Shown here: piece by piece, positions 1,234 to 3,722 of the stretch
How the letters are laid out: the number at the start of each line of letters is the position of its first letter
Position numbering within the stretch: position 1 is the first letter of the stretch
IMG/VR virus record: IMGVR_UViG_3300025867_000675
Length of the DNA stretch: 41,247 nt
Reading direction: 5' to 3' (one strand)
Source: a virus
Translations under genes and position numbers: made by a program
Notes under the pieces: model-generated
Seen by the model: the letters and a program-made list of their open reading frames with translations, nothing else
Databases searched by the model: none
Told to the model about the DNA's origin: nothing

Positions 1234-3722
1234 ATGGCAGATAACAGAAACAGCAGGGACCTGGCAATCACAACAGGCCGGTTCGCCCTCGTCCTCGACC
1301 GCACTAAAGGTCACGTTGAAACGCTGACCGGTCCTTACAAATCCAGCCTTGCTGATACGCAAGCTCCTGTGAGGTTCGCACCTGAAAATCCGACAGGATA
1401 CGTCGAATGCGAAAGCCCGCAGCAAGCTGTCCAACCTTACGTCACTGCCGCCCAAGGTCAGTACGTCGTTCTGTTCAACCCCGCGAACACGACCAAAGCT
1501 GCAGACAAGCAATACCCACCTGAAGGCAAGCCAGAGCAACCCCCACCCCTCCAGATCGGGCACGTGGTCAACATCCCTGGTCCTGTAACGTTCGCGTTGT
1601 GGTGGCAGCAGAAAGTGGAAGTCATCGATGGACATCAGCTGCGCAGCAACCAATACCTCGTGTGCGAGGTGACCGACGAAGCTGAAGCTAAAGCGAACTG
1701 GAAAAAAGCAATCTTCAAAGCCACATCAGAAGGTGAAAACGCTGGCGACAAAATCGCCATCAAGAACTTGGACATCGCCAAGTTCACCATGGGCCAGCGC
1801 ATCGTTATTCGTGGTGACGAGATCAGCTTCTTCATTCCTCCTACCGGCATCCGCGTTGTGCGCGATTCGCGCAGCAAATACGTTCGCGAGGCAGTCACTC
1901 TCGAAAGCCAGCAGTACTGCGTGCTCCTCAGCGAGAGCGGCACGAAGCGCTACCTGCAAGGTCCTGCGGTTGTGTTCCCGACAGAGACCGAATCGTTCAT
2001 TGAAGGCTCTGACAGCTCGCGCATCTTCAAGTGCATCGAGCTGAGCCCGACAAGCGGCATCCACGTCATGGTCATTTCTGACTACGAAGAAGATGGCAAG
2101 GAAATAAAGGCGGGCACCGAGCTGTTCATCACCGGTGAGACAACCCCGATCTACTACCCTCGCCCCGAGCACGCCATCGTCAAGTACGACTCTGCCAGCG
2201 TGATCCACTACGCCACGGCAGTTCCTGAAGGTGAAGGCCGCTACGTCCTCGACAAAATGGAAGGAAAAGTGCAGACGCTGATCGGCCCGAAAATGGCGCT
2301 GCTGAATCCGACTAAAGAGGTGTTCATTCGCCGCATCTTACCCGCAAGCAGGCTGAGCTTTACTTCCCTGGAAACAGCGAAGTGCTGCAAGCCAACCTTG
2401 CCATGGCCAGCACTGAAAGTGCATCGGACTACTCCAACCAGATCTCTTACAGCTCGGATGCGTCATCCGCATTGCGCAGCAGAACATTTGGTGCGTCATC
2501 CACGAGCCTGTCTGCCGACATGGTGCAGCGCAAGAGCAGCTACACGCCGCCTCGCACGCTTACGCTTGACAGCAAATACAACGGTGCGATCCCGATTGCA
2601 ATCTGGCCCGGCTACGCCGTTCAGGTGGTGAAGAAAGATGGTAAGAGCCGCGTTGAAGTTGGACCGAAGACGGTCCTTCTCGGCTACGACGAGGACCTGA
2701 CGCGCTTGTGCCTGTCAACCAGCAAGCCCAAGAACACTGACAAGCTCTTCGAGACGGTCTACCTCAAGATCGCTGGAAACCAGGTCAGCGACATCGTCAC
2801 GATTGAAACGTCGGATGGTGTTAGCGTCGAGATCAAGCTCATCCTCCAGGTGAAGTTCGAAGGAGACCCTGCGTCATGGTTTACGGTCGACAACTATGTC
2901 AAGCAAATCACTGACCACGTCCGCTCAATCCTTCGCGGCGTTGCCAGAACATACTCAATCGACAAGTTCATCCAGGAAAGCACCGCCATCGTGCGCAACT
3001 CTGTGCTTGGCGCCAAGGATCCCGAGAAAGGACGCCCTGGCTGCGTGTTCAAGCAGAATAGCGTCAAGATCTGTGACGTTGACGTGCTGAATGTCACTGT
3101 CACGAACAGCTCGATTGCAGAGCAGATACGCCAGTCGCAGACGGCCCTGGTTGCTGGACGCTACAGCGTCATCCGCGCCGAGCAAGAAGCCAAAGTGATC
3201 GCTGACACTGAGCTCACCGAGCGCATCAAGCTTGAGGAGAAGCAGAAGACCGAAGAAGCGCGCCACGATGCTGCGGTCGAGGCTCTTACCAGAGCCCTTG
3301 AACGCGCACTGGCAGAAGTCAAAAACGAGAACGAGAAGAAGACCGCTTCGATTAACGCGACGATTGAGCAATCCAGGCTTGAAGCTACTGCAAACGACCT
3401 GCGAATCGAGATCAAGGCCAAGTCTGCCGCTGCTGAGGCGGAGATCGAGACCAAGCAGGACGCCATCGAAGCCGATCGCATCAAGGTCGAGACGGCTGCG
3501 ATCAAGGAACGCTTCGCTGCTATCAGCGCCGACTTCGTGGCTGCACTCCAAGCTGGCGCAGATCGCGATGCCATGGTCGACGTCGTTTCGAAGATGGGCC
3601 TGTCTGCCTACGTGAAAAACGACAGCGTCGGAGCCCTGCTCAACAACCTGCTCACGGGCACGAAGCTGAGCGGAGTCCTGACCAAACTCGGTACTGTGGA
3701 CTCACGCCGCGAACGCGACTAA
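1234..3722 (+). CDS. major vault protein (MVP)-like protein; frame disrupted (-1) near 2340 (ORFs 1234..2631 + 2382..3722)
   Basis: N-terminal tandem MVP-type repeat domains (GTELFITGETTPIYYPRPEHAIVK; IVIRGDEISFFIPPTGIRVV; RYVLDKMEGKVQTLIGPKMALLNPTKEVF), then shoulder-like domain (DIVTIETSDGVSVEIKLILQVKFE; WFTVDNYVKQITDHVRSILRGVARTYSIDKF), then long coiled-coil cap-helix region; frame1 tail after ~2340 is Arg-rich junk while frame3 continues protein-like. Confidence 0.65.

Follow-up and report, generated by a model that had tools for sequence, protein, structure and literature searches.

Major vault protein (MVP) homologues have been described both from phages and from bacteria (bioRxiv 10.1101/2023.11.10.566534, 10.1101/872010): those of phages comprise N-terminal repeats, a shoulder and a cap-helix, are encoded by tailed phages and are nested within bacterial MVP-like clades (bioRxiv 10.1101/2023.11.10.566534). 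An MVP-like gene of this kind with a broken reading frame is located at positions 1,234 to 3,722 (+ strand) of the IMG/VR virus record IMGVR_UViG_3300025867_000675, a stretch of 41,247 nucleotides that was analyzed as a whole (hereafter "the window"). The break is likely a real, recent, lineage-specific and non-programmed single-base deletion in a phage MVP-like gene. The MVP homologues of the Caudoviricetes phages ctOa11 and ct2Ri15 (bioRxiv 10.1101/2023.11.10.566534), with ~810-830 amino acids, are likened to the window gene by their domain content; in contrast to it, they are intact single open reading frames (ORFs), whereas the window gene is split by a deletion of one nucleotide.

The bacterial MVP-like/SPFH-containing proteins (bioRxiv 10.1101/872010) are collinear with the rejoined product of the window gene, possess 800-900 amino acids and carry Vault_3 and MVP_shoulder domains with an overlapping Band_7 match; their identity to the rejoined protein amounts to 40-58% over 97-100% of its length, but they are intact and many are chromosomally encoded (e.g. 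in metagenome-assembled genomes of Parcubacteria, Planctomycetota and Bacteroidia). Eukaryotic MVP (PDB 4V60, 4HL8, 7PKZ) shares with the rejoined protein the alignment of the last repeat, the shoulder and the cap-helix. This relationship is, however, distant, with sequence significance confined to the shoulder region; nothing in the present data speaks for particle assembly, vault RNA, TEP1 or vPARP.

One MVP-like protein in two reading frames

Translation of the locus bore out the initial annotation, which had described an MVP-like protein of ~830 amino acids as divided between frame 1, native up to ~2340 and continued by an Arg-rich tail, and frame 0, open from 2316 and leading into the MVP shoulder (for coordinates see Table 1). 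The upstream ORF (1234..2631, frame 1) encodes 465 amino acids; the stretch before the tail reads ...NPTKEVFIRRILPA, the native part ends with ...PTKEVFIRRILPA and is followed by the tail SRLSFTSLETAKCCKPTLPWPALKVHRTTPTRSLTARMRHPH.... Frame 0 contains a TAA at 2313-2315 and is then open up to the stop TAA at 3720-3722; its translation includes RGVHSPHLTRKQAELYFPGNSEVLQANLAMAS... and ...TRKQAELYFPGNSEVLQANLAMAS.... Frame 0 is reached from frame 1 by a -1 shift, equal to one missing base, and the two pieces, rejoined to 829 amino acids, align end to end and collinearly with single-ORF homologues, the junction being free of gaps. A log-odds codon-usage score, for which other long ORFs of the window served as the training set, favored frame 1 to ~2300 and frame 0 from ~2350 and was negative for frame 1 across the tail; the coding signal thus changes frame ~290 nucleotides ahead of the stop codon of the upstream ORF. 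The 94 tail residues (including 15 Arg, 13 Thr and 12 Ala) resemble no homologue.

In the frame-0 part, Pfam revealed MVP_shoulder (PF11978; E 6e-22, 78.3 bits at a cut-off of 25, profile positions 3-117 of 118), Vault_3 just 5' of the shoulder (PF17795; E 2e-08, 34.6 bits at a cut-off of 28.8) and an overlapping Band_7 match (E 2.8e-08). The Pfam search of the upstream ORF, i.e. the N-terminal ~370 amino acids and the tail, gave no match; its N-terminal 370 amino acids are 40-75% identical to the N-termini of proteins bearing Vault_3 and MVP_shoulder. The rejoined protein matched more than 5000 proteins of bacteria and phages in a large protein collection, many of them with the JGI label 'major vault protein'. 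A two-gene arrangement in which the downstream gene starts independently, set against a split gene by the initial annotation, did not emerge from the homologues: among the best 120 matches, 118 were single, full-length proteins (805-885 amino acids, covering 97-100% of the query). An exhaustive HMMER search was made with the native N-terminal part alone (371 residues). Of its 150 best cluster representatives, about 140 had at least 745 amino acids, and in nearly all of these the alignment ended at query residue 369-371 while the target went on; the lengths of the few shorter matches were scattered (368-705 amino acids), as expected of genes cut by contig ends.

Compared with solved structures, residues 461-741 of the rejoined protein aligned with residues 466-760 of eukaryotic MVP (E 4.5e-21); weaker collinear matches linked residues 221-380 to MVP 274-430, and a weak collinear similarity of the N-terminal part spanned MVP 114-430. 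On the basis of these alignments of the shoulder region and, more weakly, of the repeats, the rejoined protein is collinear with MVP throughout repeats, shoulder and cap-helix. In the same alignments the break is positioned at about MVP residue 420, which we take to be repeat R8 of the rat vault structure. By its sequence relationships the gene is placed in the MVP-like family by descent, as a disrupted copy: owing to the one-nucleotide deletion in 2336-2347, it lacks the uninterrupted reading frame of the functional family members.

The nearest intact relatives (54-58% identity, 830-835 amino acids) reside on phage-looking contigs. In the relatives L006-L010 the gene is a single one of 830-834 codons' worth of amino acids; the contigs of the relatives are one-strand arrays of small ORFans with a Mom-like gene, methyltransferases and a NAD-dependent ligase, and in that of L008 the MVP-like gene is accompanied by genes for a T4 Gp23 capsid protein and an S77 prohead protease. 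In the window, the genes are arrayed on one strand and most of them are ORFans; it probably derives from a large, T4-like or huge phage. In a collection of phage records the sole matches were three uncultured phage genomes of 462-735 kb (~41-42% identity); a distant-mode DNA search of that collection with positions 1234-3722 found nothing, and neither MVP half was matched by a PHROGs family.

The lesion at the junction

In a DNA alignment, the stretch between CGCCGCAT and AAGCAG proved to be shorter in the window by exactly one nucleotide than in the homologous loci L005, L006 and L009; in a protein alignment of 20 rows, none of the homologues had a gap at this place. The comparison of homologous loci that had been recommended in the initial annotation gave a uniform picture, since every relative examined proceeds in one frame at this site: this applies to L005 (ERZ27245399 k141_2811798), the closest relative with 67% amino acid identity over 813 residues, and to all 18 other aligned homologues. 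L005 crosses the site in a single frame, reading IRRVLSAKQAELYFPGN; at the junction, PTKQVFIRRVLSAKQAELYFPGN of L005 is opposed to PTKEVFIRRILPA in frame 1 and (T)(R)KQAELYFPGN in frame 0 of the window. The missing base fits any place within 2336-2347; two candidate placements are ATC-CTT to ATCTT, the repair of which gives ILTRKQ and a CTT Leu codon shared with L005, and GCA-AAG to GCAAG, the repair of which gives ILPAKQ. The homologues differ in the two residues that separate L from KQ, so that the alignment does not decide between these placements.

At least five contigs (ENA, Logan and JGI) contain the exact broken ORF of 465 amino acids (P0014). Four of them were compared with positions 1234-3722: a SPAdes-style (NODE_-style) contig of 89.8 kb (L001, ERZ795026), a MEGAHIT-style (k141_-style) contig of 36.6 kb (L002, ERZ27257423 k141_566065), a Logan contig of 13.6 kb (L003, SRR4236661) and a JGI contig of 2.9 kb seen in three samples (L004, 3300009692). 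All were 100% or 99.96% identical to the window without a gap (L004 only to its end at 3141), and the window match to these contigs extends up to 5.6 kb. L002 differs from the window by one single-nucleotide polymorphism (SNP) in 5.6 kb, and by the same single base from L001 over 7.3 kb; at least two distinguishable populations therefore carry the break. The SNP (3135 T>A) replaces Ser by Thr in the post-frameshift half; as a single non-synonymous change it is compatible with relaxed constraint and proves nothing. A search of 5.8 billion protein clusters yielded no intact allele with an identity above 72%. Exact-pattern scans of JGI metagenome contigs and IMG/VR for the broken and the repaired allele (TTA-N{5,9}-GCAGG with flanks) yielded nothing, so that no allele frequencies were obtained.

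Age of the break and the sister lineage

Behind the break, frame 0 contains no further stop or indel. Identity of the window protein to the homologue P0002 was 68.7% for residues 1-371, 54.7% for residues 372-637 and 40.9% for residues 638-813; for the two intact proteins P0002 and P0013 the corresponding values were 68.4%, 52.4% and 39.2%. Because there is neither extra divergence nor a further stop or indel, the break would be young relative to the split from L005, or else the downstream part would still be in use; the sequence comparison is taken here to point to a recent event. Protein-guided scans of IMG/VR for closer relatives found nothing, and a protein-guided scan of JGI metagenomes found only relatives at 63% identity or less; consequently, there is no relative between the window and L005 by which the break could be dated.

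L005 contains an in-frame TAA (L005 2336-2338) at rejoined codon 638, a position occupied by E, D, A, K or S in homologues, and its homology continues in the same frame past the TAA to the contig end. The two closest known members of the subclade are thus disrupted independently of each other, and all more distant relatives are intact. This distribution hints at relaxed selection on the MVP-like gene in this subclade, the L005 part of the argument resting on one short contig. Nothing supports an alternative genetic code behind the TAA of L005, which moreover would not explain a frameshift.

Consequences for the gene product

In the proposed course of events, the lineage would have lost one nucleotide within 2336-2347 of the MVP-like gene. 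Ribosomes starting at ATG 1234 would then synthesize ~370 native residues and 94 out-of-frame, Arg-rich residues before terminating at TGA 2629-2631, and the remaining 459 codons (last repeats, shoulder/SPFH and cap-helix coiled coil) would stay open in frame 0 but be deprived of their start. The downstream half could at most be translated from an internal GTG or ATG (2382, 2403, 2628). The start chosen by gene callers, GTG 2628, overlaps the TGA of the upstream ORF (GTGA) and gives a product of 364 amino acids on L001-L003; it would cost ~95 further residues. No Shine-Dalgarno-like sequence precedes any of the three codons, and genes of the window generally lack one.

The first codons from which the downstream half could be restarted lie beyond the L-x-x-P-G-N motif (LYFPGN), the L, P, G and N of which are at least 90% conserved (alignment columns 445-450). 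As the motif is situated between the break and the first start, it would be contained neither in the truncated N-terminal nor in an internally started C-terminal product, and a loss of the normal function is argued from the absence of this nearly invariant element from both. The break therefore probably inactivates the MVP-like gene. Since only the broken allele was recovered across several metagenomes and a separate nonsense codon occurs in the sister lineage, the gene would seem to be dispensable at least in this subclade, and the deletion most likely would inactivate an accessory gene not needed by the phage. The break, its recurrence in other contigs, its absence from relatives and the lack of recoding signals are thus observed, while loss of function, recency and dispensability are inferred from them.

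For the annotation of such genomes this means that the ORFs 1234..2631 and 2382/2628..3722 should be recorded as one disrupted MVP-like gene rather than as two hypothetical proteins, which matters because the upstream ORF alone has no Pfam match. In the wider context of the phage and bacterial MVP-like proteins, which are widespread with thousands of homologues, the broken gene is a small piece of evidence for an accessory rather than a core function. A mutation of this type is nothing unusual; it affects a known family and opens no new mechanism.

Points against a recent inactivating deletion and alternative explanations

Several observations weigh against the interpretation as a recent inactivating mutation. 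The stop-free tail of 94 codons is somewhat long for its frame, in which 3.2% of positions have at least 95 open codons ahead; this length is moderately unusual, insufficient to suggest selection. The GTGA overlap of the tail with an in-frame GTG could allow coupled re-initiation, and the perfect preservation of the downstream half fits a recent lesion but also a continued function. Furthermore, the evidence consists of assembled contigs, in which a minority intact allele within a sample would go unseen; the contigs with the break hardly differ from each other, some of them may stem from shared read sets that different groups assembled anew, and their strict independence depends solely on the one SNP in L002.

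It is unlikely, though the likeliest of the alternatives, that the gene works as two polypeptides, i.e. an N-terminal repeat fragment (residues 1-370 and the tail) and a C-terminal shoulder/SPFH-coiled-coil fragment, the start of which would be GTG 2382, ATG 2403 or, if re-initiation is coupled to termination of the upstream ORF, GTG 2628. Frame 0 is indeed open and fully homologous for 459 codons, and the starts at 2382 and 2403 are placed at the beginning of a variable, gap-rich linker (columns ~455-510) where a split might be tolerated; the GTGA overlap at the end of the upstream ORF was taken by gene callers as the start of the 364-amino-acid product, the missing Shine-Dalgarno sequence is no argument against a start in a window whose genes mostly lack it, and an SPFH and coiled-coil fragment would have the layout of the neighboring Band_7 gene. 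However, the two-gene layout is found in no homologue, the scattered lengths of the shorter matches being those of genes truncated at contig ends, the L..PGN motif would be absent from both products, and a start at 2628 drops ~95 more residues; divergent relatives bearing the break, in which selection for a split gene might become visible, were not found. A naturally split two-gene MVP architecture was rejected, the best 120 matches and the best 150 representatives being overwhelmingly single ORFs. As a separate observation, the downstream product of 364 amino acids was absent among the 120 best matches of the rejoined query, although an identical match of 364 amino acids should score high enough to be included; presumably the word-index candidate list is responsible.

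It is quite improbable that the break is tolerated or even used, either in a co-assembling split vault-like protein or by a low-level, non-canonical -1 decoding that sets the ratio of truncated to full-length product. Were this true, the TAA of L005 would represent a second way to a shortened MVP, and the phage subclade would be remodeling a vault-like shell instead of losing it.

A sequencing or assembly artefact, with an intact gene of 830 amino acids in the true genome, is very improbable. The difference is just one base, one of the contigs has low coverage (NODE_110, cov 7.3) and some assemblies possibly share read sets; against this, the junction is identical in four contigs, which come from several sample accessions and from assemblers of three styles and include one distinguishable variant, homopolymers at the site are no longer than 3 nucleotides (the longest in 2330-2350 is CCC), an intact allele was not found in the protein collection and the other genes checked in the window are without such a break. 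In the other pairs of same-strand ORFs that overlap (7335/7687, 8800/9078, 25300-27475), the switch of coding frame coincides with the stop codon, so that the break is a local and not a genome-wide feature. Genome-wide frameshifting or a poor consensus was accordingly rejected, these pairs behaving as ordinary neighbors.

Least credible of all is a full-length MVP made at a set ratio to the truncated form by programmed -1 ribosomal frameshifting or by transcriptional slippage. The direction is -1, the zero-frame product runs into a long open tail without an immediate stop, and the minimum-energy fold of 2330-2450 places a hairpin (2344-2401) just 3' of the junction. In programmed -1 sites such as dnaX (A-AAA-AAG), transposases of IS elements and the phage tail-chaperone G/GT, two -1-related frames likewise make up one homologous protein; in such established examples, family members have the frameshift in common. 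Here, by comparison, slippery sequence, conserved stimulator and conservation in homologues are all missing. A regex scan of 2280-2440 for the X XXY YYZ slippery heptamer, which had been considered in the initial annotation together with a downstream structure, found none, nor is there a site of the A-AAG type at the junction; the junction codons are CGC-AUC-UUA-CCC-GCA-AGC, and according to codon-anticodon pairing rules the tRNAs on AUC-UUA-CCC-GCA-AGC would find no -1 frame pairing. The hairpin falls short of significance (z = -1.45, with an equally good fold in 18 of 200 shuffles) and abuts the site, starting 0-3 nucleotides from it rather than at the 5-9 nucleotides downstream of the slippery site that are usual for stimulatory structures; the corresponding region of L005 folds no better than its shuffles (z = +0.53). 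The Rfam search of 1100-4000 gave no match and thus no frameshift element, no tRNA genes, including suppressor or unusual tRNAs, were detected in the window, and neither the closest nor any other relative has a frameshift at the site. In view of the missing slippery site or run, a structure short of significance, the lack of an Rfam element and the lack of conservation, programmed frameshifting is unlikely. Transcriptional slippage, which typically needs an A or T run of at least 7 nucleotides, was ruled against, as no A or T run exists at the junction and CCC is the longest run in 2330-2350. From the options raised by the initial annotation, the genuine frameshift mutation (pseudogenization) is hence retained; the assembly indel is disfavored by the repetition of the break in other contigs, and the programmed frameshift by the missing signals and the missing conservation.

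Genomic neighborhood and further features of the window

The MVP-like gene is preceded by an SPFH/Band_7 gene and followed by a hairpin resembling an intrinsic terminator (Table 1); both genes probably belong to one transcription unit. The Band_7 gene is not adjacent to the MVP gene in L005-L013, the adjacency being specific to this lineage. A conserved module of Band_7 and MVP genes was rejected, as the Band_7 gene is absent beside the MVP gene in all fetched relatives. PADLOC found no defense-system match for the Band_7 gene and both MVP halves.

Table 1. Features of the MVP-like locus and its immediate surroundings in the window
Feature	Position	Strand	Remarks
SPFH/Band_7 gene	44..1177	+	377 amino acids, long coiled-coil tail; Pfam Band_7 E 4.8e-18; phrog_200 E 1.3e-20
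MVP-like gene, N-terminal native part	1234..2346	+	Frame 1, ~370 codons from ATG 1234; corresponds to the vault repeat region
Frame junction	2336..2347	+	Holds the single missing nucleotide (DNA alignment)
MVP-like gene, C-terminal part	2346..3722	+	Frame 0; remaining repeats, variable linker, Vault_3, shoulder, cap-helix-like coiled coil
Out-of-frame tail of the upstream ORF	2347..2631	+	94 codons, Arg-rich, TGA 2629-2631
L-x-x-P-G-N motif codons (LYFPGN)	2358..2375	+	Frame 0; after the break, before any in-frame start
First candidate restart codons of the downstream half	2382..2405	+	Frame 0; GTG 2382, ATG 2403
Vault_3	2619-2747	+	Frame 0, Pfam
Shoulder domain	2778-3104	+	Frame 0, Pfam MVP_shoulder
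Intrinsic-terminator-like hairpin	3749..3788	+	12-bp stem, then T-run; marks the end of the transcription unit behind the MVP-like gene

Further observations concern the expression signals of the window. Five near-identical, promoter-like copies of ~45 nucleotides are distributed on the + strand (5202-5245, 23039-23082, 28332-28375, 33907-33950, 39043-39086); the element TAGTTGCAAATAAATGTTTACAAAT.TCCGTAGCGTGATATAGT consists of a TTTACA -35, a spacer of 16 nucleotides and the extended -10 TGATATAGT. The sequence TGNTATAGT occurs 5 times versus 0.26 times expected, each time on the + strand. Since an ATG follows 6-9 nucleotides after the -10 in at least three copies (5252, 28385, 39093), the arrangement suggests leaderless transcripts or transcripts with very short leaders. 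Likely starts (e.g. 4405, 5829, 10184, 14959, 21000, 35987) are hardly ever preceded by a Shine-Dalgarno-like sequence, and a second short motif, CGTAGTTAG(G/C), is located directly before several ATGs (14959, 21530, 35987); these features may reflect a host without Shine-Dalgarno-type initiation or phage-specific initiation signals.

A GH39-like glycoside hydrolase (32524-33909, + strand; E 2.6e-16) is encoded beside an ORFan of equal length (461 amino acids; 31130-32515, + strand), the BLASTP comparison of the two proteins showing no detectable relation (E 1.2). A patatin-like phospholipase is encoded at 38110-38985 (+ strand; Pfam E 5.5e-23; PADLOC 'Effector phospholipase' E 1e-63; phrog_25573 2e-36) and, judged by these matches, looks like a defense-type effector on an apparently phage genome.

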